Shown here piece by piece: positions 13,820 to 41,798 of a stretch of 64,000 nt of DNA. Source of the stretch: Cenarchaeum sp. (GTDB taxonomy: Archaea > Thermoproteota > Nitrososphaeria > Nitrososphaerales > Nitrosopumilaceae); NCBI GenBank assembly GCA_963693095.2, contig OY843768.1:128001-192000 (forward strand). Reading direction: 5' to 3'. Every line of letters starts with the position of its first letter. Positions within the stretch are counted from its first letter, which is position 1. The notes beneath the pieces are model-generated. The model was not told the DNA's origin. It saw only the letters and a program-made list of their open reading frames with translations, and searched no databases. The position numbers and the translations under genes were made by a program.

Positions 13820-14919
13820 TACTGCCGATCAAAAGTCCGTGCCGCATTCCAGCGACGTCCGGCCCAGGTATGCCATCACGTCGAGCCGGTACCTCGTGTG
13901 CCTGAAGTGCCGTGACACCGCCGTCCGCATATCCACCATGGTGGGGTAGTGCTCGGAGACCAGCAGCGCCCGCTTTGCCTGCCGCCACACCTCCTCGATC
14001 GCGTTGAGGTACGGCGAGCCGGTGGGCAGCTCGATCAGCCTCACCGCCCTGTGGGCGCGAAGATAGTCCTTCACCGCCGCGGCCCTGTGCTGCGGCGCCC
14101 TGTCGACGATCACGGCGACCCTGCCGAACTTCCTGTGCATGTCGCGCAGGAACGCGACAAACGTCTCCGCATCGAACCTGTCGTGCACCCGGAAGATCTG
14201 CTTCCCGTCAGTGGAGATCGCGCCGTACACCACGACCCTCCTGTGTCCCCCGGTGTACGGGGCGACGACGGGGACGCCCACGCGCGACCAGTACTTTGAT
14301 CCGTCGGCTGCGCCGTGCACGGCGATGGTCTCGTCCTGCACCACGATGGTGAATCCCGCGCGCCTGAGGCGCCTTATCTCGCGCCGCACCCGGCGCCGCC
14401 AGCCGGCGACAGTCGGCCCGTCGGCCCTGTTCACGTGCACCAGGCGCGTCCGCTTGGCGGAGAGGCCGGCCCTGCGCATTATTTTCCTGACGTGCGACAT
14501 GTGGAACCTCACGCCGGTGGCCCGCTCGATCTCCAGCATGACCTCTGCGGGCGTGACGCGCCCGGGCATTCGGCCAATCAGGCGGCCAAGCTTCTGCCGC
14601 GCGACCAGCGGCGGCCTGCCGGGGCGGGGGCGGTCCCGCAGGGCCTCGACACCGCCACTCCGGTAGCGCGCGACCCACTTGCCGACCCACCTGGGGCACT
14701 GCACGAGCGCAAGTGCGACCTCCTCGCGCGTCATCCCCAGGTTCTCGTGCATGTTGACCGCGGCAAACCTGTACCTGACGTCGCCGTCCCTCTCGTCGCG
14801 GAGTGCCCTGCGGAACGCTTCCAGCTCTTGGCCTTCCATGCGGGGCGTGGGGAGGGGCGATCCATATAGCATGCGGGTCGGGAAAGTTTGATCATGGCAC
14901 GAACTTTTGCTCGTCAGTA
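13820..14919 (-). mobile_element. IS630-family insertion sequence, about 1100 bp
   Basis: Imperfect TIRs TACTGCCGATCAAAAGTCCGTGCC and the reverse complement of TACTGACGAGCAAAAGTTCGTGCC; flanked by a TA duplication that restores a CTAG target. Confidence 0.92.
13829..14872 (-). CDS. IS630 transposase (intact single ORF)
   Basis: HTH with RPRPGRPP; DDE triad QDE / VDRAPQH / SPYLNAIEEVW; start placed at the first ATG inside the TIRs. Confidence 0.93.
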   Translation of the reverse strand: MLYGSPLPTPRMEGQELEAFRRALRDERDGDVRYRFAAVNMHENLGMTREEVALALVQCPRWVGKWVARYRSGGVEALRDRPRPGRPPLVARQKLGRLIGRMPGRVTPAEVMLEIERATGVRFHMSHVRKIMRRAGLSAKRTRLVHVNRADGPTVAGWRRRVRREIRRLRRAGFTIVVQDETIAVHGAADGSKYWSRVGVPVVAPYTGGHRRVVVYGAISTDGKQIFRVHDRFDAETFVAFLRDMHRKFGRVAVIVDRAPQHRAAAVKDYLRAHRAVRLIELPTGSPYLNAIEEVWRQAKRALLVSEHYPTMVDMRTAVSRHFRHTRYRLDVMAYLGRTSLECGTDF

Positions 14920-15050
14920 TAGCTCTTATCCTCAAACTCTTCCGGGAGCTCGGCTATGTATCATAGTCTGAGAGGGATATGCCTACGGCTGGAACGCTTA
15001 TCACGACGATCTATCCCTGATATTTCAGTAGATTGGATGTGTAATGTTTT

Positions 15051-17759
15051 TTATCGATCAGCATACTTTTTGATTATGATGTGAACATCATCTGGATCAT
15101 ACGCTACGTCCCACTCCCATTTACCAAACCTACCATCTGCATTCACTGTTTCAATCCATTCTTTCAATGCATCGTGTTTTTTTGTAGTTTGTTCATTATG
15201 TTGTCCTTTAATCTCTAAAATTAACGTGACGTTATTTTCTAGCTGGACAAGATAATCAGGATTATAATCATGAATCTCTCCTTTAAATTGATATTTCACA
15301 TTGAATCCAGATATGTAGTTTTTTACCCATGAGATGACTCTTTCATTTTTGTCTAATTCTTTGCTAGCTTGCTCTTCCCATTTATTATCGCATGGGCTAG
15401 GATTAATATGTGATTTTGTTGCGTTGACAACTTTTTTTGTAGTGTACCATGCTTGCATATCGTTAGTTGATTTTTGTTGTTTTGTGTTGCCAAAAATTAT
15501 TTTTTTATATTTTGTGTTATCAGCTCGTATGAAATCATGTATGTATATGACAATAGTTTTCATGTTGAACATGATCGCTAATTGTTTTCTTATTTTTAAC
15601 TTATCAGTTAAATTTAAAAATTTAATTTTATCTAATTCGATAAATTTCTCAACAATTTTAACAATTTGAAAAAAAAGATAGTTCTTATTTCCTGACCATT
15701 CTGGGATTGTTATATGATCATAAATATCACTTACAGTCTGGAAAATTATTGTTTGCATTCGTAATTTGTTGTAGGATTTCTGCAATGTTATCTCTGAAGC
15801 ACGACTAATGTCTAATTTTGAATCTAGCATTGGGGCTACGTGTATAGTTGTGGTGACTTTTGATCTAATCCTCAATGTTGAAACTTTTTTCCAGTTGATT
15901 TTTAAAACTGGTGTGATTATGGTTTCGATTCTAGCTATGTTTGGCCAGCTTATCTCGTGTTGAATATTGATTGGATCACACGCTATGCGTGTTTTCGTCT
16001 TTTCCTTTCGAATCTTACCTGGTGTGTTCTCATGTGGCAGAAATGAAAACGGTACTCCGAGTATATTGACATATTCTTTATCTAACAAACCAGTTTCAGG
16101 ATCTATTTCATATGATAAGCGGCGTAAACCTCTGCCTACCACTTGTTCACATAAAAGTTGACTAGTAAATGCACGTAACCCCATTATGTGAGTGACATTT
16201 TTTGCATCCCATCCTTCAGACAGCATTTGTACTGCAATAATATTCATTATTTGTTCTCCGGGTTTATCTTTTTGACCCACCGTGTTGATTATTTCACGAA
16301 TGGCATCAGTTTTAGCAGATTGTTTTTCCCCACGTTCAGATTTTAAAACACTTGTATCTATACGACACATTCTATTTTCATCTGCCAGTTCCCCAAATTT
16401 ATATATACTATTCTTAAAAAAATGTACTACTCTGGCTGATGTATGTACACTATTACACACAGTAATCATTACTGGGATTATATTTGATTTTTTCAGCTCT
16501 TTTCGTTTCATCGCCCAATCATTTCCGAGTAATATGTATGCATTACGGACTAAATCGGGTAGTGTCGTTTCGGGTTTTTTTGCGCCTTTTAGATCGCTTT
16601 TTACTTTATCATTGTCGTATATATGATAATATTTGGAACGATCTCCATACTTGAGTGATTTGCCATCATCACCTGCAGGCATACGTGGAGTTTTTACAAG
16701 GCCAGATTCTATAGCATCGTTAAGTGAAAAATCAGAAATTATCCATTTGAATAAAATATCATCGTTTGGCTTATTTTTGCTTGGAATAAACGGCGTAGCT
16801 GTAAAATCAAAGCATGTGACAATAGTTCGTGCTCTATCTAATTTATCAAGTCCTTCGATCCATAATGTGGCCATCATCTCATCCATGTTTGATTCAAAGT
16901 CTGATTGTTCTTCATAGTCATTTTTAAGTTTTCTCCAAGCATGATGTGCTTCATCATTTATCACTATTATGTTATCATAATTATGCTCCAAAATCCTTTT
17001 CGCGAATGCTTCATCGCTTTCAACTCCTCTACGAACCACACTATGAGGTTGATCTTCTGCTGGTTTCAGCGTGTGCCAATTATGAATTTTTAATTTCCCA
17101 TGTCTTAGATTTTCATACATTGAATCTGGTATTATCGAATAAAGATGGTAATAACTGTTTTCTTGATCAGGTGGCCATAGCACTTGCAGTCGTGATTTTA
17201 CAGTAAGTCCTGGAGCAACAACCACAATGTGTTTTGAAAATCTTTTATCTTGTGGGTATGACACTTTGTTTAATATTTGCCATGCGATTACCATTGCCAT
17301 TACTACTGTTTTCCCTGTCCCCGTTGCCATTTTTGAACACAATCTTTTGAACAGTCCACCATCAGTGCCTAGCCCGAGTTCCTTTTTTTCTGATTCGGGA
17401 GACTCTATCATCCAAATTATTGTTTCTATAGCTTCTAATTGACAAAAGAAAAAACGATGTGCTTGACGCATAGATGGATCGTTCCAAAACTCTAGGAGTT
17501 GCCTTGTTATTCCTGTGACCCCGGGATAACCTTTGTCTCTCCATCGATCTACTCGCTCTCTTATGATATTTACAGATTGTATAGGATAAAATGCGCCAGG
17601 ATCATCAATAGAATTGTTTTCTGGAGATGCAATTATGTATCCTGCTGGCCTCCTTTTTCCAACAATGCGTTCGGGCTTGCGTGTCTCGAGATTAAACTTC
17701 CAGTACTCTTTAGGTTTTTCATACGGGTTGCATATTATCAATTGATCGATTTCGTCCAA
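15051..17759 (-). CDS. res: Type III restriction enzyme Res subunit
   Basis: KMATGTGKT, NDEAHH, TATP, LSEGWD and QVVGRGLR motifs; C-terminal PD..EIKG nuclease motif. Confidence 0.93.
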   Translation of the reverse strand: MDEIDQLIICNPYEKPKEYWKFNLETRKPERIVGKRRPAGYIIASPENNSIDDPGAFYPIQSVNIIRERVDRWRDKGYPGVTGITRQLLEFWNDPSMRQAHRFFFCQLEAIETIIWMIESPESEKKELGLGTDGGLFKRLCSKMATGTGKTVVMAMVIAWQILNKVSYPQDKRFSKHIVVVAPGLTVKSRLQVLWPPDQENSYYHLYSIIPDSMYENLRHGKLKIHNWHTLKPAEDQPHSVVRRGVESDEAFAKRILEHNYDNIIVINDEAHHAWRKLKNDYEEQSDFESNMDEMMATLWIEGLDKLDRARTIVTCFDFTATPFIPSKNKPNDDILFKWIISDFSLNDAIESGLVKTPRMPAGDDGKSLKYGDRSKYYHIYDNDKVKSDLKGAKKPETTLPDLVRNAYILLGNDWAMKRKELKKSNIIPVMITVCNSVHTSARVVHFFKNSIYKFGELADENRMCRIDTSVLKSERGEKQSAKTDAIREIINTVGQKDKPGEQIMNIIAVQMLSEGWDAKNVTHIMGLRAFTSQLLCEQVVGRGLRRLSYEIDPETGLLDKEYVNILGVPFSFLPHENTPGKIRKEKTKTRIACDPINIQHEISWPNIARIETIITPVLKINWKKVSTLRIRSKVTTTIHVAPMLDSKLDISRASEITLQKSYNKLRMQTIIFQTVSDIYDHITIPEWSGNKNYLFFQIVKIVEKFIELDKIKFLNLTDKLKIRKQLAIMFNMKTIVIYIHDFIRADNTKYKKIIFGNTKQQKSTNDMQAWYTTKKVVNATKSHINPSPCDNKWEEQASKELDKNERVISWVKNYISGFNVKYQFKGEIHDYNPDYLVQLENNVTLILEIKGQHNEQTTKKHDALKEWIETVNADGRFGKWEWDVAYDPDDVHIIIKKYADR

Positions 17760-17762
17760 ATC

Positions 17763-20335
17763 TCATGGCTCCATAATTCGTAATGTTTCTATTCCTCTGT
17801 CATCAATTATTTTAACTGCAATTTTTTTATTTGTTCCCAATTTAAACGGTATAGATAATATTCCTGAATATTTCTCCAACAAATATTCTTCAACATATGG
17901 TTTTAATGTTTTTGCTATTTTATTCCATGAGCTTTGTACATCCAACATTGGAAAAAATACTTGTTGTGGGTATATGCTTCGCCCATCATAATCTGTATCT
18001 AACATCCACATAGCAATACGCGTTGGATCGCCGGGTTCAACCTTATTTGTTATTGTATTGTAATAATCAAACTCCTTAACCATTACTTCCCATTCATTTT
18101 TTTTCTTTTTAAGCTCCACGTCAGGTTGACCTATTAACATGAATGATTCATTTTTTATTTGTTTATTTTTTAAATCACTCGTAAACAAATCGCCATTTAT
18201 CTGAGCTTTTAATATTACAATACCGGGCCATCTGAGTTCGTCTATGTCTTTTGCTGCTTCGGGATCAAACTGCAACGCTGCAAAAATCACCATTGCGGGT
18301 TTTTCGCCTAATTTACGAACCTCTTGTATCGCATTTTCAACCTGACGTTGTTCAAGAGGTGTATGTGCTGATCCAAACGATATTAAAACAGTTTTTGTTT
18401 CCTTTTCGTTTGTTTTAGCTTTTGCATGTAACCACCTGGTTGTTGGATGTGGATCTACACTTAGAAATTTTATTTTTTGCTTGTTTTTACCAACAATTCC
18501 AGTTTTTAACAGCTCTTGGCGCCAATCAGACTGTCTTTTACTTTCGTTGTTTTCTAGATCTGATTCTTTATATTGATTAACATACATTAGATCTAATGAC
18601 TTGGACGTTGGTGATGGTACTGCCTCTACTGTGAACGGGCCTGATACTCTCGTCTTTGACGAATCTTTGTCTGGACAATCGTACAAAATTACATTGTTGG
18701 GTTCTTCATCATGTGATATTGATTTTTGAGTTATTTGTTGTATTTTTTTATATGAAAATCCAGCATCAATACCTTGGCCGGGGTTTTCTAATTTATAATA
18801 TTTATAAGTCGCAGTCATTAATCTTCTTTTTGTTAATGCAATTGCCACGCGTGATGTGTCACATGTAATCCAACGTCTCCCAAATTCTTCTGCTACGAAT
18901 GCGGTTGTCCCAGATCCGCAAGTAGGATCTAATATGAGATCACCTGGATCGCTAGTCATCAATATGAATCGACGAATTACTTTAGCTGTGGTTTGAACAA
19001 CATATATCTTGTTTTCAAATCCCCCACTACTTGTGTCATCCCACATATTCTGGAGTTCGGCGTATTCAAAATCATTGAAATAGCGCACATATGATAACCT
19101 GTTACCATTTTTCATAATTCGATTTTTTGTGATCAAGTATTTCATGCCTTTAAGTGATGCCTTCCAATGACTATGCTGACCAGGTGTGAACACTTCACCG
19201 TCAAATATGAGAGAATCGTCACTCTTTGACTTGCCCGGAGATGTTGTGGCAGCAAGCCTATAAATTTTTGATTCTGATGGTATGCTAAGTGGGTTATCTC
19301 TTTGCTCCTTTGTCATTCTTATACGTTCGCCCTCTTTTAATTCTAAATATTTGTAATTCGGATCGTTGATGGGCAATTCTTTTTTTGTATACAGTTTGTG
19401 AGATTTTAACAGTTTTTTATTTTTTGCATACCATACAATATAATCAAACACCACTGAAATATGCGTACTTGTAGAATTTGATGTTTTTCTAAATGAGATC
19501 ACGCTTACAAAATTCTCATACCCAAACACTTCATCCATTATTATGCGTACATAATGCAAATTATCATCAGAAATTTGTACCCCACAACTTCCAGTTTCAT
19601 TTAATAGCTCTTTTGCTAAAATTAACCGATCGCGCAAGTATCCCAAGTATGAATGAATTCCATGCTTCCATGTGTCTCTAAATGCTGTCACCATTTCTGG
19701 TTCCTGTGTGAGATCATCATCATTACGATCTTTAACATTCATTTTATTTACAAACGGTTGAAAGTTTGACTTATATTCAATACCGTATGGCGGATCTATG
19801 TATATTGTTTGAATTTTTCCTGCAAAATTTTCTTTTTGTAATAGGGAGTTCATAACTAACAGAGAATCTCCGGCAATTAATCGATTTGACCAATTATGTG
19901 AATGTTGATAAAATTGCAATGCTTCTCGTAACGGAAGATTGTATTCATCATGATCAAAATGAAGGGTAATTTTTTGTTGGATGTGAGTCTCTGGCTTCAG
20001 AATTTTATCAATAATTGTTATAGGATCAATACGTTCATGTTGATGTAGCGACACTGTATCGATTTCAAAATTTCCATCTTTTTGCTTCTCAAACCAGACT
20101 AATACCGGGTCTAAATGAGGGTCATATTCGTATTTGGTTGGATCATGATCACGATCTGTGTTGGGATCAACAAGCCCTACGGGTGGGTTATTTGGTCGTG
20201 CGCTACTGTGATAATACTGCTGAATGCGTTCTCGTAGCTTGGGTTCTGACTTTGATGCTTTTGTGGCTTTATTTTTTGACTTTTTGCTGGGGGGGGGGGT
20301 CGTCGTGTTCCTATTTTCGTTTTAGTCAACGGCAT
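17763..20335 (-). CDS. mod: Type III DNA methyltransferase Mod, frameshifted at a C11 tract (putatively phase-variable)
   Basis: IYIDPPYG and DPTCGSGTT motifs; the frame stays open upstream of the 20054 GTG (YYH..RPNNPPVGLV..YEYDPHLDP) as far as the poly-C; the ATG at 20335 is in frame only with C9 or C12. Confidence 0.88.
20289..20299. repeat. G11/C11 homopolymer tract in the 5' coding region of mod
   Basis: Eleven consecutive G on the + strand inside an AT-rich island. Confidence 0.9.
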
Positions 20336-20643
20336 ACCCCCACTATAACCACACGGCTTGCGTTGTTATATGTAAAACACATAGTGTTGACATACTTATA
20401 GAGTTGAGTGCTCCAATAGCATTCTTTCTGGGTCATTGCTAACGCCCACTCGCAAGTTATTTTCTATATATAGGTACCAGCGCATATTGGTCATATTCAC
20501 TGTGTTTTCTACAGGGTGGATGTGATTCTTCAGACGACTATTATTTCTGGCGTATTCTATGGTTTTACGTTTTGTCTGATCTGCCAGGGTAATAGTTCTG
20601 TACGCCTAGGCATTAATATGGCTCCCACCCGACGCCCGCCTGA

Positions 20644-21498
20644 ATGGCAAAGGCGACAGTCGGCATATCCATAGTCGGGCGTGACCACGAGGGAGTCGTG
20701 GCCGCCTTCACGTCATACGCGTTTCAGGGCGGGGCCAACATTGAAAGGATCACGCAGAACGTCATAAAGGGCCTCTTTGGCATGTACCTCGAGGTCTCAT
20801 TCTCCCGTCCCCCGGACCGCAAGTCATTTGACGCCGGGCTGCAGAAACTCGCCAAATCGCACGGCATGGAGGTCAGCGCGCACCACGAGGACGGCTCTAC
20901 AAAGCAGATCGCAGTCTTTGTGACTCGCGAGCCGCACTGCCTTGAGGCCATACTCGCCGCACAAAAGTCACTGCACGGTGGCAAGGTCGCAGTTGTTGTG
21001 GGAACCACACGGTCACTTGCGCCAATGTGCAAAAAGGCACGCGTCCCGTTCATGACCATCGAGGAGCGCAACCAGGAAAAGGCCGAGGCGCGACTGCTGA
21101 AAATCTGTAGGGAAAAGAACATTGACGTTATCGTCCTGGCCCGCTACATGCGCATACTCACGCCAAACTTTGTCTGGCGCTATCCAAACCGCATCATCAA
21201 CGTTCATCCCTCACTCCTGCCTGCATTCCCCGGCGCATCGGCATACGCGCAGGCGCACGAGCGCGGCACAAAGATCGCCGGAGTCACCACACACTATGTG
21301 ACCGAGAGCCTTGACCAGGGCCCGATAATCGCACAGCGCTCATTTGAGATTCGCGCAGACGATGCGCTTGAAAAGATAAAGGTTGCAGGCCAGAGGCTAG
21401 AGGCGCGCGCGCTCCTAGAGTCACTAAAGCTGCACCTTGCTGGCAGGCTCGAGGTTCGATGGCGAAAGGTTCACGCAAGGACGACACGGCGCAAATAG
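20644..21498 (+). CDS. purU: Formyltetrahydrofolate deformylase
   Basis: N-terminal ACT domain; VLARYMRIL, INVHPSLLPAFPGA and LDQGPII motifs. Confidence 0.95.
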   Translation: MAKATVGISIVGRDHEGVVAAFTSYAFQGGANIERITQNVIKGLFGMYLEVSFSRPPDRKSFDAGLQKLAKSHGMEVSAHHEDGSTKQIAVFVTREPHCLEAILAAQKSLHGGKVAVVVGTTRSLAPMCKKARVPFMTIEERNQEKAEARLLKICREKNIDVIVLARYMRILTPNFVWRYPNRIINVHPSLLPAFPGASAYAQAHERGTKIAGVTTHYVTESLDQGPIIAQRSFEIRADDALEKIKVAGQRLEARALLESLKLHLAGRLEVRWRKVHARTTRRK

Positions 21499-22226
21499 CA
21501 TCAAAGGCCGATGCTGCTGCGCTGCGCGCGCTGCGCAGGCGAGTCGCCGTCCTTCCAGTCGGCGCAATAGAGCAGCACGGAGCGCACCTGCCTGTCTCTA
21601 CTGATGCCGACATTGCCACCGAGATATCTCGCAGGCTCTGCCAAATCTCCGGCTATGCGCTCCTCCCGACGTTCTCGTATGGCTCGTCACTCGAGCACGC
21701 GCCGCGACTCAACATGAGCCTGCGCGGCCCCACGCTGCGGGCCGCCGTGCGCGATATCGCCGCCTCGGCCGCTGACGCCGGCGCGACTGCGCTCATCGTC
21801 CTCAATGCGCACCACGGAAACAGGGCACACCTAGCGCGCCTCCCGGGCCGCATACGCGGCCACTCGGGCGGCCGGACGGTCCGCTGCATCGTGGTCCACT
21901 ATTGGCACCTCATGGACGCCGAGATGGGCCACGCCGGCCACACCGAGACGTCGATCATGCTCGCGCTCGGCTCAGCAGACATGGCCAGGGCCCGCCGCGG
22001 GTACGTCGAGCCGGCCTCGATGACTGCCCGCCAGAGGGCCGCGGCAGCCCGCCTCTCCTCGAGGTCGTTTCTGGCTGTCGCCAAAAACGGCGTCTGGGGC
22101 GACCCCAGGGGAGCCACGCGCAGTGCAGGCGAGTCGCTCCTCGCCGAGATCGCAGGCAACGTCGCTGACGAGTGCGCCAGGCTCCTGCGGGCCGCCCCAC
22201 GCACGCGCAGACGCCAAAAACGATGA
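21459..22226 (+). CDS. Creatininase family protein
   Basis: LPVGAIEQHGAHLP..TD, NAHHGN, HAG..ETS and GVWGDP motifs. Confidence 0.9.
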   Translation: MAKGSRKDDTAQIASKADAAALRALRRRVAVLPVGAIEQHGAHLPVSTDADIATEISRRLCQISGYALLPTFSYGSSLEHAPRLNMSLRGPTLRAAVRDIAASAADAGATALIVLNAHHGNRAHLARLPGRIRGHSGGRTVRCIVVHYWHLMDAEMGHAGHTETSIMLALGSADMARARRGYVEPASMTARQRAAAARLSSRSFLAVAKNGVWGDPRGATRSAGESLLAEIAGNVADECARLLRAAPRTRRRQKR

Positions 22227-22276
22227 AATTTTAATATACTACGGCCCTGGCCATGCGTCTTGGAGCAGATGCAGAT

Positions 22277-22513
22277 TTGTCCGTAGACATGGCAGTAAAG
22301 GTTCTCGATGAGAGCATAAACAAGGTGGTCCTGATCAAGATAAAGGGCAACAAGACGATCAGGGGCAACCTTTTGGGCTTTGACCAGCACATGAACCTCC
22401 TCCTCGACCAGGCCGAAGAGTCCGCAGCAGGCGGCGAGCCGGTGAGCCTGGGCACGATCGTCGTGCGCGGCGACAATGTCATAATGATATCGCCGTCACT
22501 CACGGAGGGATAG
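22277..22513 (+). CDS. Sm-like (LSm/snRNP) protein
   Basis: [16 protein letters not shown] and [12 protein letters not shown] motifs. Confidence 0.95.
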
Positions 22514-22517
22514 GCAG

Positions 22518-22685
22518 ATGGTCAAGGGCACCACCTCTATGGGAGGCTTTACGCGCAAAAAGACCCACATCCGCTGCCGCAGGTGCGGCAAGAACGCGTT
22601 CCACAAGCGACACGGCCGGTGCGCGAGCTGTGGCTTTCCGGATCCAAAGATCAGGCGCTACTCGTGGATAAAGTGGTACACATAG
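22518..22685 (+). CDS. rpl37e: 50S ribosomal protein L37e
   Basis: Read manually (below the ORF-track cutoff): [20 protein letters not shown]....CASCGF. Confidence 0.95.
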
Positions 22686-22689
22686 GGCC

Positions 22690-23613
22690 ATGTCCGTCGA
22701 GCTCTTTCTTAGCGCCGTTGCGGGGGCAGCAACGGCTGCTGCCGCCTCTAGGCTATCGCTCTTTCGCGCGCGTGTCCCGCGCATCGGCGCCAGCCCTCGC
22801 ATAGGCGCGCAGGTCCGCTCACTAGAGTCACAAAAGCGCATCCTCGAAAAGTCGATCGCGCGCATCAACACCGGAAGCATGGGACTGACCGATGGCCAGC
22901 GTGACGCGTTGCTTGCCAAATACCAGCGCGAGCTCGGCGAGATCGGCACGCGCCTAGAGGGCCTAGAGGAGGCCTCAAAGCACCCAGACCTTGGCGCACT
23001 CGGCGACGGTCTGGTGACCATTATGGACCAGCGCCTCTCCGAGCTCGACGGCAAGTTCGGCGAGCTCTCTGCGCGCATTGCCTCTGCGCAGGCCGAGCGG
23101 GCAGAAAGGCCAAAGCCATCGCGTCAGTCCACGCCGCCGCGCGAGGCGCCGCGTCCGGCACCAGTGGCGCCGCAGCCGCGCAAGACGCAGGCTAGCATGG
23201 AGCTCACAACGCTCACGCAGGTTCCGGCCGGTGCGGCACCGCAGCCGATTGCGCCGATCGCTCCGCAGGGCACAGCTCCTGCGCCGCTCACTCCGTCCCC
23301 GCAGCCCCCAAAGGCTCCTGACGTGGCACCACCTGTCGTGCCCGCCGGACCAATGACAGTTCCCGAGGTGCAGCCTGTGGTCCATCCGCCCAAGCCATCA
23401 ACGGTTCCGGACACGCCGCCGGCCACGACGGTTCCCGAGGTGCAGCCTGTCGTGCCGAGGCCAGAGGGCGCGCCACCGCCGCCACAGGTCGGCACGCCGC
23501 CCATAGAGGAGATCAACATTGACGATGATGACGCTGATGAGGACGACCTCGCAAAGATAAAGCGCGACATACTAAAGACGCTCAACAGGCTGGACCAGGC
23601 AGAGGTGGAGTAG
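22690..23613 (+). CDS. Hypothetical coiled-coil protein with Pro-rich linker and acidic C-terminus
   Basis: Long ORF coupled between rpl37e and rpiA. Confidence 0.75.
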   Translation: MSVELFLSAVAGAATAAAASRLSLFRARVPRIGASPRIGAQVRSLESQKRILEKSIARINTGSMGLTDGQRDALLAKYQRELGEIGTRLEGLEEASKHPDLGALGDGLVTIMDQRLSELDGKFGELSARIASAQAERAERPKPSRQSTPPREAPRPAPVAPQPRKTQASMELTTLTQVPAGAAPQPIAPIAPQGTAPAPLTPSPQPPKAPDVAPPVVPAGPMTVPEVQPVVHPPKPSTVPDTPPATTVPEVQPVVPRPEGAPPPPQVGTPPIEEINIDDDDADEDDLAKIKRDILKTLNRLDQAEVE

Positions 23614-24372
23614 GTGGCCTTTGAGAAGGCCATCGCAGCAGTGGCGACTGACGCAATGCGTTTTGTGAATGCCGGCGATACCATTGGACTTGGAAGCGGA
23701 AGGGCCGCGACTGCGTTCGTGCGCGCACTAGGCAAGCGCGTCGTGACCGACGGCCTTGACGTGCGCGGCATACCCACGTCGATGCAGATACGCCTAGTCG
23801 CCGAGGACGCCGGCGTGCCGCTCATCGACGCCGGCCAGGCCGCCTCGATAGACGCCGCCTTTGACGGGGCCGACCAGATAGACGCGCGCGGCAACATGGT
23901 AAAGGGCGGCGGCGGGGCGCTCTTGCGCGAAAAGATACTCATCTCGGCGGCGCGGCGCGTCATCATCATGGCAGATCGCACAAAGTTCTCGCGCCACCTC
24001 TCGATTCCAGTCCCCGTCGAGGTTCACGCGTCTGCGCGCTCGCATGTGGCATCGCGCGTGGAAAGACTCGGCGGAGCGCCGTCGATCAGGCGCGACGCGC
24101 GCGGCTATCCGGCGTTCACCGAGAACGGCAACATTGTCCTAGAGTGTGACTTTGGGACAGTGCGCGAGCCTGCCACACTGGAGCGCTCGCTGGGCCACAT
24201 CGCCGGCGTCATGGAGTCGGGCCTCTTTACGTCGCGCACGGCCGCAATATACAAGGCCGGTCCGCGCGGCGCCTTTGAGGTCACTGGAGCGGCGAGACGA
24301 GGCGCCCGTGCCCCGCCGGCCCGACGACCTCTGAGCCGTCGGCGACAAGCACGCCGCGCACAATCGTCTTGA
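23614..24372 (+). CDS. rpiA: Ribose-5-phosphate isomerase A
   Basis: IGLGSG, DGADQ, KGGGGALLREKI and TENGN motifs. Confidence 0.96.
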   Translation: MAFEKAIAAVATDAMRFVNAGDTIGLGSGRAATAFVRALGKRVVTDGLDVRGIPTSMQIRLVAEDAGVPLIDAGQAASIDAAFDGADQIDARGNMVKGGGGALLREKILISAARRVIIMADRTKFSRHLSIPVPVEVHASARSHVASRVERLGGAPSIRRDARGYPAFTENGNIVLECDFGTVREPATLERSLGHIAGVMESGLFTSRTAAIYKAGPRGAFEVTGAARRGARAPPARRPLSRRRQARRAQSS

Positions 24373-25669
24373 CGGGCCAGCCCTTTAGCGACATCCCGTC
24401 ATAGACGCTATAGTCAGAGTGGCCGCCAAACATGGCGTGGTCGAGCCTTCGCTCTAGGCGCGTGTCTATTATGGCGATATCTGCGTCGAATCCGGCCTCG
24501 ATTGGGCCCTTTTGCGGCGAGAGCGCAAATATGCGCTCGGCGTTTGCGCTAGTCAGCTCGGCGAGGCGGTTCAGCGTGAGCCTTCCGCGGTTGAGTCCCT
24601 CGCTCAGCAAAAGCGGGAGCGATGCGCCAATGCCGGGAAATCCGGCAAGCGCGCCCCACACGTCGCTGCCTGCGAGCTTTGCGTCGCGCGTGTTGGCGAC
24701 GTGGTCGGTCCCTATCGTGTCTATCTCGCCTTTTGCGATGGCGTTCCAGACGGCATCAACGTCAGACTGCGAGCGCACCGGTGGCATGACCTTTGCGAGG
24801 TATCCATCGCGGCCCTCGTGCGAGAGCGCAAGATAGTGCGGGCACGTCTCGACATGTATGCGCGTCCCGCGCGACCTCTCGAGGCGGATCTGCTCGAGCG
24901 CGCGCGCCGAGCCCACATGCACAAAGTACATCGTGCAGCCGTGGCGCCTTGCCATCTCGCAGACGCGCGCAATTGCTGCGGCCTCGTACTCGGGCGAGCG
25001 GCTCTCTGACCACGCGCGCAGGCCGTCGTTGCCGGCCGCACGCGACTCGCGCATCGAGCACGCGCATGACTCATAGTCCTCGGCATGAACGCAGACTGGC
25101 AGGCCGGTCCGCGAGGCCTTTTTGACCACCTTGTCGACTAGCGCGTCGGTGACCTCGACGTCGGCCATCTGTGGTGCGCCGGCCCCGGGATCGAGATCCA
25201 TGTGAACGTGGCCAATCTCGCCGCCGAGGTTCATGTAGACCTTGAAGGACGATATTCCGGTGACTGCCGTCTCGTACATCTCCTCGGCCTGCGCGTCATT
25301 GAATATCGAGGCGTGGACTCCATAGTCGATGTGGTGGGCCTTTGCGCTCGCCTCGAGCTGGGGGCCAAGTGAGCTCGAATAGGGGTCGACCCTGCGCAGC
25401 ATGCGCATCATTGTCGTCACGCCGCCGATGGCAGCAGCATGCGACTCGGTCGCCGCAGCCCTGTCTATGGGCGTGTACACGCCATAGTGGACGTGCGTGT
25501 CTATGGCGCCCGGAAGCGAGACTAGGCCGTCGGCCCTAATGCGCGTCTCGCACGCCGGCTCGTCGGCCGTGACTGCGGTGACCTTGCCGCCGTCTATGAC
25601 GATGTTGCGGTCCATGACGCCCTTTGGCGTGATGACGTGCGAGCCCGTTATGACCATGTCGTGTGCCAC
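24281..25669 (-). CDS. Dihydroorotase/hydantoinase-family cyclic amidohydrolase
   Basis: LPGAIDTHVH, GGVTT, VHAE, ETCPHYL, PPVR and IGTDH motifs. Confidence 0.88.
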   Translation of the reverse strand: MAHDMVITGSHVITPKGVMDRNIVIDGGKVTAVTADEPACETRIRADGLVSLPGAIDTHVHYGVYTPIDRAAATESHAAAIGGVTTMMRMLRRVDPYSSSLGPQLEASAKAHHIDYGVHASIFNDAQAEEMYETAVTGISSFKVYMNLGGEIGHVHMDLDPGAGAPQMADVEVTDALVDKVVKKASRTGLPVCVHAEDYESCACSMRESRAAGNDGLRAWSESRSPEYEAAAIARVCEMARRHGCTMYFVHVGSARALEQIRLERSRGTRIHVETCPHYLALSHEGRDGYLAKVMPPVRSQSDVDAVWNAIAKGEIDTIGTDHVANTRDAKLAGSDVWGALAGFPGIGASLPLLLSEGLNRGRLTLNRLAELTSANAERIFALSPQKGPIEAGFDADIAIIDTRLERRLDHAMFGGHSDYSVYDGMSLKGWPVKTIVRGVLVADGSEVVGPAGHGRLVSPLQ

Positions 25670-25839
25670 TGTGGCGCCCGCCTGCGCCTGCGTCTCTATA
25701 TTCCTTTTAGGCCGTGGGCGCGCCTGTGGGGCGCCCTGCGGCTTTTGTGCCTAATTCCCCGCCACGGGTGGCGATTGGGCACAGTTGCAATGGCAATCTT
25801 CATATAATGTTGGTATATGCCATCCCGCCGTTGGAATTC

Positions 25840-26001
25840 ATGGTGACAAGAAGGATTGTAAGCGGCGGACGGTCTGCTAGGCGTGGTGTCGGTGCCGTGC
25901 GCGCAGGCGAGGCCGTGTATGGCCGCCACGTCAAGGCGTGGCGCGCCATAGCGGACAGGGCGCTGGCCAAAATAGGCTGCACGGCGGGGGCGAGGCCCTA
26001 A
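25840..26001 (+). CDS. Small hypothetical protein B1 (RHVKAWR motif)
   Basis: TATA-like sequence about 25 bp upstream; stop overlaps the next ATG (TAATG). Confidence 0.55.
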   Translation: MVTRRIVSGGRSARRGVGAVRAGEAVYGRHVKAWRAIADRALAKIGCTAGARP

Positions 26002-26249
26002 TGACCGAGACGATCACGCGCAGGCGCCCGCGGGTCACGTACCATCCCGACCAGGTGAGGCGCGGCAAGGACATACTCGCCTCGATGCCCGAGAAGGAGC
26101 GCGAGTGGTACCTCGCCAAGGTCAGGGACGGCACGTTCACGCTCGCCGAGACGCATGGTATGCTCGCCGTGGGCGAGTCCATGAGGCTCGGCCGCGAGGA
26201 GGGCACAAGGCGCCGCAACGTGCGCGTGGGCCTGGAGGCGCTGTCCTGA
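26001..26249 (+). CDS. Small hypothetical protein A1 (paralogue family)
   Basis: RPRVTY..DQVRRGK.I...M...EREWY...GLEALS; similar to 26877..27113. Confidence 0.75.
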   Translation: MTETITRRRPRVTYHPDQVRRGKDILASMPEKEREWYLAKVRDGTFTLAETHGMLAVGESMRLGREEGTRRRNVRVGLEALS

Positions 26250-26398
26250 TGGCCGCAAAGCTGGCGCGCGTGTGCTCGCACTGCCACGGCACCAGGCACG
26301 GTGAGTCAGTGGGCACGCTCAAGGGCGGCTTTCACTGGGTGCATCATATGTGCCTGACCGGCTACCTCACCGACCACCCGGAGGCGGTCGAGACGTGA
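26249..26398 (+). CDS. Small Cys/His-rich (Zn-finger-like) protein Z1
   Basis: CSHC...HWVHHMC; TGATG and GTGA coupling to its neighbours. Confidence 0.65.
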   Translation: MAAKLARVCSHCHGTRHGESVGTLKGGFHWVHHMCLTGYLTDHPEAVET

Positions 26399-26646
26399 CC
26401 CACCTGCCACCCACCACCAGGGAGAGGAATTTCCCCAGGGTAAAGTGGCCCGAGCAGGACCCCGAGGCCGTGAGGCGCGGCAGGGAGGTGCTCGCGCGAC
26501 TGCCGCCCGAGGAGCGCGAGGGGATCATCGATGACGCCAGGACAAACGGCGAGCCCGAGGACGTGATGCTCGCCTCGCTGTACGCCGCGTCCCGCCTGCA
26601 CGAGGCGCTCAACCCCGGCGAGGCCGGGCGGGAGGCCAAGCAATGA
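26395..26646 (+). CDS. Small hypothetical protein A2 (divergent paralogue)
   Basis: FPRVKW..DPEAVRRGREVLARLPPEERE; GTGA/ATGA coupling. Confidence 0.7.
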   Translation: MTHLPPTTRERNFPRVKWPEQDPEAVRRGREVLARLPPEEREGIIDDARTNGEPEDVMLASLYAASRLHEALNPGEAGREAKQ

Positions 26647-26876
26647 CCAACGGCGCCGAGTCCGTGGAGGAGCTGAACCCAAAGCTCGTCCCCGTCAGGG
26701 GCGACGACGACCTCATCGGTGGCGAGGGCACCGCCATGCACCACCGGTGCAGGATATATGGCTGCAGCTCAACGTGGCCGGTCGGCGACGCAAAGGCTTA
26801 CGACATCATCTACGGCCGGTGGTGGTGCCAGTCGCACGTGCCGGGCGCAGAGCACACCAGGGAGGTGTTGCACTAG
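26643..26876 (+). CDS. Small Cys/His-rich (Zn-finger-like) protein Z2
   Basis: CRIYGC...WWCQSH; translationally coupled. Confidence 0.65.
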   Translation: MTNGAESVEELNPKLVPVRGDDDLIGGEGTAMHHRCRIYGCSSTWPVGDAKAYDIIYGRWWCQSHVPGAEHTREVLH

Positions 26877-27113
26877 ATGGCGGGAACGGCGCAGGTGCGC
26901 CAAAGGCCACGGATCATATACGACTCCGACGTGGTGAGGCACGGCAAGGCCATCTTTGACAGGATGACCGATGATGAGCAGGAGTGGTACCGTCGCAGCC
27001 TCGCCCATGGCCTCACGCTCGACGACGTGTACGGCTCACTCGCCGTGACCGAGGCCATAGCCCGCGGCAACGCGGGACGCAGCGTGCGCGAGGGTCTGGA
27101 GGCGATCTCCTGA
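26877..27113 (+). CDS. Small hypothetical protein A3 (paralogue family)
   Basis: RPRIIY..DVVRHGK.I...M...EQEWY...GLEAIS. Confidence 0.75.
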   Translation: MAGTAQVRQRPRIIYDSDVVRHGKAIFDRMTDDEQEWYRRSLAHGLTLDDVYGSLAVTEAIARGNAGRSVREGLEAIS

Positions 27114-27114
27114 C

Positions 27115-27336
27115 ATGGTGAACTGCAACTGTGGCAACGGTTCGGCTCCGCACAAGGTGTGGTGCGCCATCCGCGCCGGACAGCGCGAGAGGCGTGTGAC
27201 GCAGGCAGTGCGTCCCGAGAAAAAGATGACAAAGGCGCAAAAGCGGCTCGCAGACCATGACCGGCACGTCAAGGCGTGGCGCGAGGTAGTCGAGAGGGTG
27301 CGCAACAACCTGGACAGCAATGCAGAAAAGTCCTAG
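27115..27336 (+). CDS. Small hypothetical protein B2 (CNC..H..WC plus RHVKAWR)
   Basis: Starts 1 bp after the A3 stop; shares a motif with B1. Confidence 0.65.
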   Translation: MVNCNCGNGSAPHKVWCAIRAGQRERRVTQAVRPEKKMTKAQKRLADHDRHVKAWREVVERVRNNLDSNAEKS

Positions 27337-27471
27337 ACGGCCATCATGGCCAGCCTGCGTGATTGACTGCCTGTCAGATCACCGCGAGGCCAAAAAGGAC
27401 GAAACGGGGGCGAGAATGTCGCCCCATGCGCGCGCCCAAGATCGCAGACATGACAACAGTGATATAATCAT

Positions 27472-28068
27472 GTGAGACTCTGTGGCCTGTTGAATAAAAC
27501 ACGTGCCGATCCATTATCCGTCCCAGAGTCACTCCTTGCCGCCTCCATGCGCAATGTGCCGCATCGGGGCGCGTTGCCCCTCACTCCGGATATCTTTCCG
27601 CCGATCCCTCAGAGCCGCCCCAAGAAGATCCGCAAAAAGTCAGCCTTGCCAACACCTGACATCGCCTCGTCTATCCTTGCCGCCTCCATGCGCAATGTGC
27701 CGCATCGGGGCGTCCCTCCGTTCACGGTAGCCTCGTATATGTCACGGCAGCAGCACCCCTCTGGGAATCTGCCTGGTAAACCAATGGTGCCCTCCTCACG
27801 CTTTGACACGGTGGACACTAGCACGGCAAACTCCGTGTCCATTGAGGAATCGCATGGGCGAGGCCGCGTCGCGGCCAATTCGTTCTCCAAGGGAATCGTT
27901 TTCCTGATCGCCGCGGCGCTTTTCATCTATCTGGTCTACCGTAAATACCGCCGTCATCGTGTAGAACGTCAAAAACGCCGTGAGCTGAGCATTCTCAAGA
28001 ACGAGCGCCGTGCAGGACGCCAAGAGCTCAAAACGCGCAAATCAAAGAGCCGCAAACAGCGGAAATGA
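27472..28068 (+). CDS. Hypothetical membrane protein with basic C-terminal tail
   Basis: Single TM (GIVFLIAAALFIYLVY) followed by a K/R-rich tail; start uncertain. Confidence 0.5.
   Translation: MRLCGLLNKTRADPLSVPESLLAASMRNVPHRGALPLTPDIFPPIPQSRPKKIRKKSALPTPDIASSILAASMRNVPHRGVPPFTVASYMSRQQHPSGNLPGKPMVPSSRFDTVDTSTANSVSIEESHGRGRVAANSFSKGIVFLIAAALFIYLVYRKYRRHRVERQKRRELSILKNERRAGRQELKTRKSKSRKQRK
27533..27712 (+). repeat. 39-bp direct repeat TCCTTGCCGCCTCCATGCGCAATGTGCCGCATCGGGGCG, two copies
   Basis: Identical copies at 27533-27571 and 27674-27712; degenerate core near 28429-28450. Confidence 0.85.
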
Positions 28069-28129
28069 CGGCAATGCCACCGTATGCAACGCGCCCTTGC
28101 CAATCACCCTGGTGCGGCGCACGCACCCT

Positions 28130-28414
28130 ATGTTCGCGGCTGGATGGTTGCATTTGAGCTATCATTGGGGCGCGCCGGTACAGGATCACCCTGTAACATC
28201 GTACATATGGGAAGAGTTTTTCTGGGTCACGTTTGATGTCACGACATGGCTGATCCTCCTCATCGTCGTTGGGATCAGCGCGCGATTTGTGCGGATCAGT
28301 GTGCGCGAGCGCCGCGTGTCCGAGGGCACAGAGGACATTTCACGGGGAATGGAAGAGAACATTCGCGACATTCTGCGCGAGACCTATCTGTTCCTGTTTC
28401 CGTGGACCAGATGA
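28130..28414 (+). CDS. Small hypothetical membrane protein
   Basis: TM segment TWLILLIVVGISA within ORF 28010..28414; start uncertain. Confidence 0.45.
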   Translation: MFAAGWLHLSYHWGAPVQDHPVTSYIWEEFFWVTFDVTTWLILLIVVGISARFVRISVRERRVSEGTEDISRGMEENIRDILRETYLFLFPWTR

Positions 28415-28453
28415 CGCCGGCGCCCTGCTGCGCAATGTGGCGCACCGCGCGCA

Positions 28454-29392
28454 CTAGGTGATGATGACTGCTGACATGGCGGGGTCAATGGATGCCCCCA
28501 TGGCATAGCGCGCGCCAATCCTGCACTCGCCGCCACTGTTGCCAATGATGACCTCTAGGGTGCTCAGTGCCACGCTGACCGAGCCCCTTGCGGCAACGAG
28601 CACGCTGTCCCAGCCCGTGCCCGCCGCGTCCCCAAACGCGGGGCTCACCACCACGCTCACCCCGTCGACCTCCATCTCTCCGGCCCACAGGTCATTGCTG
28701 TCAAACAGCAGCCTTGCCTGCCTTGGGGAGGCCACGCAGAACAGCCCGTGCGGAAACCTCGTGCCGTGGTTGGCGTCAGCTATTGCCCGTGCGGCCCTTA
28801 GGACATCGGCGCCCTCTAGCGCGCCGCTCTCGCCGACATCACGGGTTCTCCTCTTGTCGTCCATGCGCAGCGTCCTTGCGAGCATTGGCCCGTCTGAGCG
28901 AATCAGGCTGGAGCGAACCGCGCGCTCGACGTCGAGGAGAACCTCGTCACGTATGGACGCGAGCATGTCGCGCGCCACGTTGGAGCCGTCCTCAGCCAGG
29001 GCATCCTGGCTGACATTGTGCCATATGCCCTCCTGCACGGAGAACTCGGTCTCCACGACACGGTGCGTCCTCGTGCCGGCCTTGACCCCGAGCGCCTCGC
29101 GCGTCCTGTGCGGGGCACCGAGGGCTATGCGACCATGCGTTCCGTCGGCGTTCACGCCCACCTCAGTCACGCTGGCATGGTCGATCACCGAGTCGCGTGC
29201 CGTGGGCATTATGCGCCCAATGGGAACCTGCCACGAGACGGCGCCTCCCTCGCCGAGCTCCCCGGCCCCATCGCCGAGTATGCCCCTGACGGCAGGCCAC
29301 ATGGGCTCGCCGCTCCTGAACGCGCCTGTGATCGAGTAGCATATTGCGTCCCATCCTGCGCTACTGTCATCCTGTCCCTCCATTGCGGACAC
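28454..29392 (-). CDS. Putative HK97-fold capsid-like protein
   Basis: 312 aa; VSQDALAED..NV..DM...IRDEV..DVERA (spine-helix-like), DVLRAARAI..AN..LFCVASPRQ..LL, DGVSVVVS and C-terminal RY.MGA.IDP...AVI pattern. Confidence 0.55.
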   Translation of the reverse strand: MSAMEGQDDSSAGWDAICYSITGAFRSGEPMWPAVRGILGDGAGELGEGGAVSWQVPIGRIMPTARDSVIDHASVTEVGVNADGTHGRIALGAPHRTREALGVKAGTRTHRVVETEFSVQEGIWHNVSQDALAEDGSNVARDMLASIRDEVLLDVERAVRSSLIRSDGPMLARTLRMDDKRRTRDVGESGALEGADVLRAARAIADANHGTRFPHGLFCVASPRQARLLFDSNDLWAGEMEVDGVSVVVSPAFGDAAGTGWDSVLVAARGSVSVALSTLEVIIGNSGGECRIGARYAMGASIDPAMSAVIIT

Positions 29393-39797: not shown

Positions 39798-40355
39798 ATG
39801 AAGCCATACAAGGCAATACTGCTGACACTGCACGCCAACGAGGACCTGAGCAACGGTTCTGGTGCCGGCGATATGCCGATCAACCGCACCGCAATGCAAA
39901 AGCTCGTCTATCTCGAGTCACAAAAGCGCCTCTGCGATGCCTCGTACCGCGCCCACTATTACGGACCATATAGCGAGGACGTAGCCGAAGGGCTCATGAC
40001 GCTGTGGGCATTCGGGTATGTGAGAGAAGATGCGCCCAACTATGACACTAGGGCATATACCTACACTCTAGAGTCCGGAGGCCGTAGACTTGGAAAAAAG
40101 CTTGCGTCTGGCGAGCACGATAAAGAGTACGCGGTCATCCGCTCCATCGTGAACACTTGTAGAACACAATGTTCGCTGCAGCAGATAAAACTCTCCCGTG
40201 CTGCTAAAATCCACTATCTGCAAAACGAGCATAAAATGCGTACTCACGACCCTGCAAAATTTGTGACTCTTGGAAAACAGCTTGGCTGGGAATTAAAAAA
40301 GAGAGATATCGGTGCTGGTTTAAAGCTTCTTCAAGCTTTGGGTCTTGCCAACTAG
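39798..40355 (+). CDS. YwgA-like / DUF4065-like winged-helix protein
   Basis: RTAMQKLVYL...YRAHYYGPYSEDV...GYVRE...Y.YTL pattern. Confidence 0.65.
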   Translation: MKPYKAILLTLHANEDLSNGSGAGDMPINRTAMQKLVYLESQKRLCDASYRAHYYGPYSEDVAEGLMTLWAFGYVREDAPNYDTRAYTYTLESGGRRLGKKLASGEHDKEYAVIRSIVNTCRTQCSLQQIKLSRAAKIHYLQNEHKMRTHDPAKFVTLGKQLGWELKKRDIGAGLKLLQALGLAN

Positions 40356-41637: not shown

Positions 41638-41798
41638 TCAGGTACTTCAGACGTTGCATTTTGTGACCTTGTGACAACAGGAACATAAACTGGAGTATTC
41701 CTAGCTTCGCTTGCCATATCATTTTTCTACGTACGTCGCGCATACAGCCCTGCCTGTTGTTCGTGAGCTGCAAGTCAATAACTTGCTTGGTTCATACG

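Follow-up and report, generated by a model that had tools for sequence, protein, structure and literature searches.

Can the methyltransferase gene of a restriction-modification system in an archaeon be switched on and off by the length of a simple repeat, as in host-adapted bacteria? This question is raised by a locus in Cenarchaeum, an archaeal genus of the Nitrososphaerota that is generally known as a sponge associate. The locus contains a Type III-like mod gene, its adjacent res gene, and a run of eleven cytosines (C11) that separates the methyltransferase reading frame from the only ATG upstream of it. It lies in a 64,000-nucleotide stretch of DNA, hereafter referred to as the window, which corresponds to positions 128,001 to 192,000 of the forward strand of contig OY843768.1 (assembly GCA_963693095.2); unless a genome label is given, all coordinates refer to this window. 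The genome that holds it, G000, comprises 2.0 Mb in 2 contigs with a GC content of 60% and a completeness of 99.55%. Genome G004 represents a sister species of the same genus and is entered as "MAG: Cenarchaeum sp." (OY843584.1; MAG, metagenome-assembled genome), and the name of this genus-mate agrees with the view of the initial annotation that the host is an archaeon. Taken together, the data are best explained by mod being a simple-sequence contingency locus that is currently OFF, a reading to which we give somewhat more than an even chance.

Anatomy of mod and the C11 run

The mod open frame is located on the minus strand at 17763..20321, with 852 codons free of stops (20321-17766) followed by the stop codon, and it encodes a Type III-like N6_N4 DNA methyltransferase. 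The translation matches Pfam family PF01555 with an E-value of 6.6e-31 and the PADLOC profile MTase_III (PDLC03632) with an E-value of 7e-138. Its closest solved chains are the Type III Mods 6k0w_B and EcoP15I 4zcf_A, with the matches confined to residues 140-478. From these matches the Mod subunit is predicted to be a Type III-class N6/N4 DNA methyltransferase. The res gene is positioned 3 nucleotides (nt) 3' of the mod stop codon at 15051..17759, likewise on the minus strand, and its uninterrupted open reading frame (ORF) for a 902-amino-acid (aa) restriction subunit bears out the earlier description of it as intact. Res matches Pfam ResIII, the NCBIfam model NF046055 ("BPTD_3080 family restriction endonuclease") with 928.7 bits against a cut-off of 800, and the PADLOC profile REase_III with an E-value of 2.4e-11. 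The gene order, with a same-strand res directly downstream of mod, is that of a Type III system, and the profile and structure-chain matches agree on a Type III-like mod with an adjacent res, as had been proposed. The Mod belongs to a subfamily of 830-870 aa that is partnered by Res subunits of the BPTD_3080 family.

The C11 run, which is the proposed switch element, occupies 20289..20299 on the minus strand (G11 on the plus strand) and contributes codons to a poly-Pro stretch that lies in the Mod N-terminal tail. On the other side of the run lies the only ATG upstream of the mod frame, at 20333..20335 (minus strand), which is likely the true mod start. Read along the minus strand from 20335, the sequence is ATG CCG TTG ACT AAA ACG AAA ATA GGA ACA CGA CGA, followed by the eleven C's and AGCAAAAAG. 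At C11 this ATG opens a frame of 52 codons with stop (20177..20335, minus strand), which begins MPLTKTKIGTRRPPPPAKS... and is ended by the stop at 20179-20177; it coincides with the mod frame only at run lengths of 9, 12, 15, and so forth. When the run length alone was changed by script, the ORF from ATG 20335 measured 856 aa at C9, 21 at C10, 52 at C11, 857 at C12, and 22 at C13. A change in the length of the run, in other words, moves mod between in-frame and out-of-frame states. The positions of the run and the ATG in the initial annotation were correct on reading the sequence, and the substitutions reproduce its claims of a frame restored at C9, an 857-aa product at C12, and an early stop at C11. 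According to the available part of Atack et al. 2018 (PMC5909438), a mononucleotide run of at least 9 nt marks a mod gene as potentially phase-variable, and at 11 nt within the mod ORF the present run exceeds that length.

The annotated start is a GTG at 20052..20054 (minus strand), the first canonical start in the mod frame; from 20321 onward, no ATG, GTG, or TTG occurs in this frame 5' of it. The frame had been estimated to remain open for ∼80 codons upstream of the GTG. It does so for 89 codons without a stop, ∼78 of them 3' of the run. The best 120 homologs listed are mostly 810-917 aa in length and cover 94-100% of the 852-aa query, and 15 of them were aligned. The block QYxH..(K/R)xNNPPVGLV..YxYDPHLDP..W..VSLHxHERIDP is carried by 13 of these 15, in keeping with the typical N-terminal motifs noted earlier upstream of the GTG. 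The GTG codon corresponds to V90 within VSLHxHERIDP; positions V90-D99 are nearly invariant, as are 10 columns 5' of V90. Given its location inside this conserved block and the columns that precede it, the annotated start is a gene-calling artefact, and GTG 20054 is, judged by these alignments, probably not the real start. Gene callers have shortened the annotated product to 763 aa here and to 696 aa for P0002 (95% identical), and where such mod genes are truncated in this way the switch stays hidden.

In the homologs, the initial Met precedes a basic tail whose length varies. In P0003, the closest full-length homolog (69% identity), the residues at the position of the window tail are M..PAPPPPKKRKTA, that is, Met and then PAPPPPKKRK. 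At C12 the window would give four prolines and then SKKSKNKA opposite the PAPPPPKKRK of P0003. An AlphaFold model calculated with a 16-row alignment has a mean pLDDT (predicted local distance difference test) of 58, with residues 1-144 below 50, and is uninformative about the N-terminal region.

These alignments also bear on whether the run matters at all. Mod might start downstream of it, either at GTG 20054 or at an ATT codon, with the upstream ATG serving as a decoy or as the start of a small leader. The ATT lies at 20223..20225 (minus strand) in the mod frame, just 5' of the codons for QQYYH, and as a possible non-canonical start it would yield an 820-aa protein beginning MQQYYH. It aligns exactly with Met 1 of homolog P0035 (819 aa, MEQYTH...), and the variable length of the basic tail 5' of QYxH among homologs implies that the tail is dispensable; the low ratio of nonsynonymous to synonymous divergence (dN/dS) described below would follow naturally from such a start. 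However, ATT is a rare and weak start, and no Shine-Dalgarno-like motif was seen before ATT 20225. Initiation at the GTG would remove the 10 nearly invariant columns, the Met of P0003 lies upstream of its prolines, and the G/C runs found in 14 of the 40 family loci discussed below, including a C26 run in a paralog, would be left unexplained. A start downstream of the run is thus regarded as distinctly unlikely.

If mod is instead a contingency locus, translation from ATG 20335 would have to cross the poly-C run, whose proline codons belong to a basic N-terminal tail that Mod can do without, and the length of the run would change by slipped-strand mispairing in replication. A length of 12 or 9 would yield the full Mod (857 or 856 aa), and at C11 or C10 translation would end after 52 or 21 codons. 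Restriction would be lost together with methylation in the OFF state, since Res depends on Mod for the recognition of its sites; in the portion of PMC10609329 available, Res is described as cleaving only when complexed with Mod, with ATP and two sites needed. The locus belongs to a wider set: in Cenarchaeum-like sponge archaea, long G/C runs are found throughout the genome at genes for methylases, restriction enzymes, and surface proteins. What the mechanism presumes is that the site switches reversibly and at high frequency, that the ON form is active, and that a regulon lies downstream. That the sequenced mod represents the OFF state of a slipped-strand contingency locus seems to us slightly more probable than its negation.

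Run length in other sources and selection on the locus

In G004 a C11 run is present at the orthologous site, with flanks that are 98% identical. The locus is present in six public sequencing runs from three studies, none of which is on record as RNA, and four of these (X1, X5, X6, and X7) were compared. For X1, where the word depth is 160-500, the contig graph breaks at the homopolymer, and two short contigs cross it: one with a length of 11 at a depth of 82.9, and the other, one letter fewer, with a length of 10 at a depth of 32.6. A single contig with a length of 11 crosses it in X5, no contig crosses it in X6, and X7, consisting of Hi-C raw reads, had 0 reads on the stretch and so has no bearing on the length. 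X1, X5, and X6 were available as assembled contigs, in which rare variants are lost, and for these sequencing runs no platform is recorded. Eleven is the major form in all four sources that resolve the run, namely the window, G004, X1, and X5. When the two flanks with a variable gap were used as a pattern against metagenome_contigs, 0 matches were obtained. By their single-base differences, the window, G004, X1, X5, and X6 are distinct mosaic haplotypes, and those of X1, X5, and X6 suggest recombination.

Errors in long-read consensus sequences arise mainly at long G/C homopolymers, and both complete genomes may share one technology. The true run could then be C12 and the gene intact. Speaking against such an error, which the initial annotation had itself raised, are the two independent assemblies and the contigs of two further sequencing runs from other studies, all of which give 11, with 10 as the only variant. 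The recurrence of 11 in G004, X1, and X5 counts against that alternative, and the single in-frame length that would have supported it was never observed. In addition, a second Type III mod in G000, described below, needs the opposite correction (to G10 or G13), so that a one-directional miscall cannot mend both genes, and the out-of-frame members of the Mod family need changes in both directions. C11 is probably not an assembly error, and an intact gene hidden behind a consensus mistake is extremely unlikely.

The res and mod genes reside in a low-GC island at 15000..20400 with a GC content of ∼35-36% as compared to ∼62% around it. The island is flanked by a UbiA prenyltransferase gene and a formyltransferase (purU-like) gene, and its position is identical in G000 and G004. 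Divergence between these two genomes was calculated by the Nei-Gojobori method. For mod, dS is 0.159 and dN is 0.019, corresponding to a ratio of 0.12, and for res the respective values are 0.205, 0.017, and 0.083. The housekeeping neighbors display dN/dS ratios of 0.04-0.09 and dS values of 0.16-0.25, and three other neighbors display ratios of 0.22-0.45. After 249 substitutions, mod and res together contain 0 stops and 0 gaps in 852 + 902 = 1754 codons. The island has been inherited vertically, since its dS equals that of the flanks and it occupies the same site in both genomes. It has been kept under purifying selection since the two species split, although the run is C11 in both.

These values also address the possibility that mod is a decaying pseudogene in which C11 became fixed through a -1 slip as part of an ongoing loss of the system. 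Mod is out of frame in every source, and in G000 an IS630-like transposase gene (IS, insertion sequence; DDE_3 and helix-turn-helix domains) lies beside res at 13829..14935 on the minus strand; this gene is absent at the syntenic site in G004. One family member, G084:192400, carries an extra in-gene TAG. The low dN/dS ratios of mod and res, their lack of stops and indels, and a dS equal to that of the flanks nevertheless rule out a long-dead pseudogene, and decay of the system is considered very unlikely.

Divergence is not uniform across the locus. A 0.9-kb patch at 19990-20889, which extends from the 5' end of mod across the intergenic region into the beginning of the formyltransferase gene, contains 16 substitutions versus the ∼44 expected at the local rate of ∼7 per 150 nt. 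Either constraint or a more recent exchange of this segment would account for the patch, and because of it the argument that two lineages are independently at 11 is weakened.

Long G/C runs across the genome and the family

When G and C runs are pooled, G000 contains 2040 of 5 nt, 433 of 6 nt, 44 of 7 nt, 4 of 8 nt, and 0 of 9 nt, yet there are 15 of 10-21 nt. By our own estimate, extrapolation of the decay predicts fewer than 0.1 G/C runs of such length, and the A and T runs of the same genome decay smoothly without a second mode. The 15 sites are located on G000:C1 at 16806, 148289, 285034, 329750, 337054, 493170, 515985, 766200, 776010, 780478, 813399, 1324331, 1328123, 1812968, and 1959854. 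As in contingency genomes, the long runs exceed the background decay and fall at surface or restriction-modification genes, classes of gene that are characteristic of phase variation.

The second Type III system (loci L013 and L104) lies outside the window at G000:C1:283563-285300 on the minus strand. Its Mod matches PADLOC MTase_III with an E-value of 1e-114. A G11 run interrupts it mid-gene, immediately 3' of the codons for the DPPY motif. Only lengths of G10 or G13 restore the frame, giving 574 or 575 aa, respectively, and the gene is followed by a ResIII ORF of 841 aa. A homolog in G043 (58% identical) is without the mid-gene run and has a C9 run 27 nt upstream of its frame. In a GmrSD_N/DUF262 gene (locus L024; Pfam E-value of 3.4e-34), a C11 run on the coding strand at G000:C1:1812968-1812978 lies directly 3' of a TAAATATA box and 17 nt 5' of the ATG, where it could set the spacing between promoter and start. 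Another long run is found at a DUF4344 metallopeptidase gene. At least six runs are near genes for proteins with signal-like N-termini, in each case ∼60-80 nt 5' of the first Met. These surface-type loci (L015-L019 and L022, at G000:C1 337054, 493170, 515985, 766200, 776010, and 1324331) have runs of 14-21 nt, the lengths of which differ from those at the orthologous sites in G004. Their proteins are rich in Thr, Ser, and Ala; two contain Big_5 Ig-like domains, and two are close paralogs.

Long G/C runs occur in all five genomes of the genus, and G004 likewise has 15. Both flanks could be matched (85-100% identical) between G004 and G000 at eight loci, one of which is a paralogous pair whose assignment depends on the right flank; for the remaining seven runs of G004 there was no two-flank match. 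Six of the eight differ in length between these close relatives, with G004/G000 values of 17/21, 19/16, 17/18, 19/18, 19/7, and 16/13, and two are equal, the mod run at 11/11 and one other at 15/15. Beyond a run length of 15 nt, one-base differences could stem from noise in the consensus; such an origin is unlikely for the larger differences. The C19 run at G004:C1:1124573-1124591, for example, corresponds to 7 bases at G000:C1:1326048-1326054, with flanks that are 98-99% identical. As a separate observation, in the region G000:C1:16806-29000 the flank of a G18 run (G14 in G004) matches at least 8 sites at 19181-28501, so that repeated units or paralogs appear to be arrayed there.

The survey was extended to the family. 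Of the 81 sampled genomes, 35 contain one or more G/C runs of ≥10 nt (34 of 80 without a genome flagged as unpublished), and such runs are concentrated in six genera: g1, g2, g7, g14, g28, and g30. Two genomes, both of g2, contain more than 200 of them (231 in G066 and 223 in G084), and many genera contain none. Tens or more are also present in some others, namely G092 and G074 (g14), G078 (g30), and G055 (g28). For some of the runs in G048, a location at a contig end raises the possibility of an artefact. The Mod family is found in 15 of the 81 genomes and, in that sample, is confined to the same six genera. In a wider sample it occurs in 31 of 401 genomes, including members of low-GC genera whose Mod genes are without G/C runs.

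The 5' regions of 40 Mod-family loci were read: the first 20 of 25 matches in the 81-genome sample and 20 further loci from the wider one. A run was counted if it comprised at least 9 G or C on the coding strand and fell between the upstream start and the basic tail/QYxH core, or within the gene. Such a run is present at 14 of the 40 loci. Explicit run-length substitution places 2 of them in frame and 9 out of frame, with the remaining 3 unclear. The in-frame cases are G066 (G13) and G053 (C9). Those out of frame are G000, G004, the C26 paralog in G004, G031, two loci in G074, G084:192400, G101, and G136, and the unclear ones are G084:2084145, G380:C5, and a contig end in G048. Two of 11 classifiable loci in frame is what random frames would give, given that by our estimate one in three is expected. 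The arrangement of a run at Mod recurs in at least five genera of the family. A fixed rule of recoding by strand, +1 for poly-C and -1 for poly-G, fitted all out-of-frame cases among the first 20 loci and was rejected when G101 and G136 proved to be poly-G loci needing +1.

The clearest comparison is between G053 and G031, which belong to different genera. Their orthologous mod genes are 87% identical over 3.9 kb, and the sole gap near the start is C9 versus C11. The ATG of G053, located 34 nt upstream, reads through 842 aa; that of G031 reads 50 aa, or 847 aa at C12. The paralogous Mod of G004 (loci L077 and L097, G004:C1:277574-280106; 44% identity) carries its C26 run at the same N-terminal place. 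There the run codes for eight prolines before the basic tail, and a length of C27 or C24, but not C26, brings the upstream ATG into frame. A length of 11 is common among the shorter runs at coding or low-GC sites, being found at the second Type III mod, the GmrSD gene, G031, G074, G380, and a type II methylase gene of G004, and it may represent a mutational equilibrium rather than a selected state.

The family data also provide a test of the notion that 11 is a selected working length, with full-length Mod made by recoding and no switch in the DNA: RNA polymerase would add a C, or the ribosome would shift -1 on CCC CCC. Programmed frameshifting and transcriptional slippage at homopolymers are familiar from bacterial dnaX, IS elements, and Sulfolobus fucA, and a run of 11 exceeds the length of the RNA-DNA hybrid, a circumstance that favors slippage. 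As in those systems, the run joins two frames of a conserved protein under purifying selection. Recoding would be consistent with the occurrence of 11 in all four resolving sources despite a dS of 0.16 between two of them, with a dN/dS as low as that of the housekeeping neighbors, and with the 9 of 11 classifiable run-bearing Mod loci that are out of frame in the assemblies. Unlike the known recoding sites, however, no stimulatory RNA structure was seen 3' of the run (the fold of 20180-20345 has a z-score of -0.73), and the shift directions are inconsistent: the four poly-C cases need +1, and of the poly-G cases four, including the second Type III mod, need -1 and two need +1, so that no single rule applies. 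Furthermore, G066 and G053 are plainly in frame, and the orthologs G053 and G031 differ in the DNA itself. Recoding at a fixed C11 is therefore judged to be unlikely.

Several points weigh against mod being a contingency locus in the OFF state. Counting the run in relatives, a check that had been recommended at the outset, turned up a minor form of 10 in X1 and differing lengths at related Mods, but no ON length (12 or 9) for this mod in the four sources that resolve it. No contig with an inserted letter was reported at the run at a depth of more than 100, and the 10 form in X1 may be real, a homopolymer read error, or a second strain. Purifying selection of the same strength as in the neighbors is harder to explain if mod is mostly OFF, and the shared length of 11 may reflect recent exchange or constraint, not independent states. 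At the other Mod loci the start codons are themselves deduced, and assembly lengths of runs longer than ∼15 nt may be imprecise.

The broader interpretation is that Cenarchaeum-like archaea, together with several related genera, possess a multi-locus homopolymer "phasome" comprising two independently switching Type III mods (two potential phasevarions), a GmrSD-type restriction gene, and secreted surface paralogs with upstream G/C runs that differ from strain to strain. We rate this interpretation at somewhat less than an even chance.

With respect to the surroundings of the locus, a scan for bacterial promoters and terminators was uninformative, the models being bacterial and the host archaeal. 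Elsewhere in the window, a second GC dip, to 45% at 40001-42000, holds the gene for a 430-aa protein with HD and HD_assoc_2 domains (40345-41637), which adjoins a seryl-tRNA synthetase gene.

Precedents and comparison with known systems

The initial annotation knew of no characterized archaeal precedent, and this stands in part. No characterized archaeal case of phase variation, a phasevarion, or contingency loci was found in the literature, mostly without subscription journals. The name of a related gene, though, is already on record: Supplementary Table S4 of PMC5909438, as far as it was available, lists 662 mod genes with phase-variable repeats, among them M.CsyAORFQP. CsyA is the REBASE prefix of Cenarchaeum symbiosum A, according to the available parts of PMC11033074 and PMC10609329. 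By its name, then, a mod of a related archaeon has already been flagged computationally; the likeness to the present gene is that of the REBASE prefix, M.CsyAORFQP being known here from its name in that list alone. The word "archaea" is absent from the main text of PMC5909438 in the portion available. The accessible part of PMC10609329 describes 25 restriction-modification loci in C. symbiosum A, including two complete Type III systems, and no discussion of phase variation in archaea was found there. In the available portion of a 2025 review (PMC11868660), multi-locus contingency genomes are said to seem restricted to pathogens, with the archaeal distribution still to be mapped.

The mechanism itself is known. 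It is its archaeal member that appears to be new, and the genome- and family-wide pattern appears to be undescribed. Nearly all known examples of simple-repeat phase variation and methylase phasevarions come from bacterial pathogens and commensals, and the genome of G000 offers a concrete, testable archaeal case: two Type III mods put out of frame by 11-nt runs, with about a dozen more runs at defense and surface genes. The data suggest that random on/off gene switching of the kind known from host-adapted bacteria may occur in archaea as well. If this is confirmed, ammonia-oxidizing sponge archaea would vary their defense, methylome, and surface stochastically. A phasome of this type, if real, would be the first in the Archaea and the first in a non-pathogenic animal associate, and it would imply that, under pressure from hosts or viruses, contingency loci as a means of stochastic bet-hedging arose in the Archaea as well as in the Bacteria.

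Among known systems, the phasevarions of host-adapted bacteria, such as those of the poly-G modH, modJ, and modL genes of Helicobacter pylori and of modU in Campylobacter upsaliensis (PMC5909438, in the part available), come first in the comparison. Like them, the locus has a Type III mod with an in-ORF mononucleotide run above the 9-nt threshold that sets the frame, a res gene downstream, and several independent run-bearing methylase genes in one genome. Unlike them, it belongs to an archaeal sponge associate rather than a bacterial pathogen; its Mod is of the 830-870-aa subfamily with a BPTD_3080-family Res, and its run is located in the basic N-terminal tail. The genome as a whole resembles the multi-locus genomes of Campylobacter and Helicobacter in its bimodal homopolymer lengths, in its long G/C runs at restriction-modification and surface genes, and in run lengths that vary between close relatives. 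It differs from them in that it is archaeal, has a GC content of ∼60%, comes from a sponge associate, and carries many of its runs upstream of genes rather than inside them.

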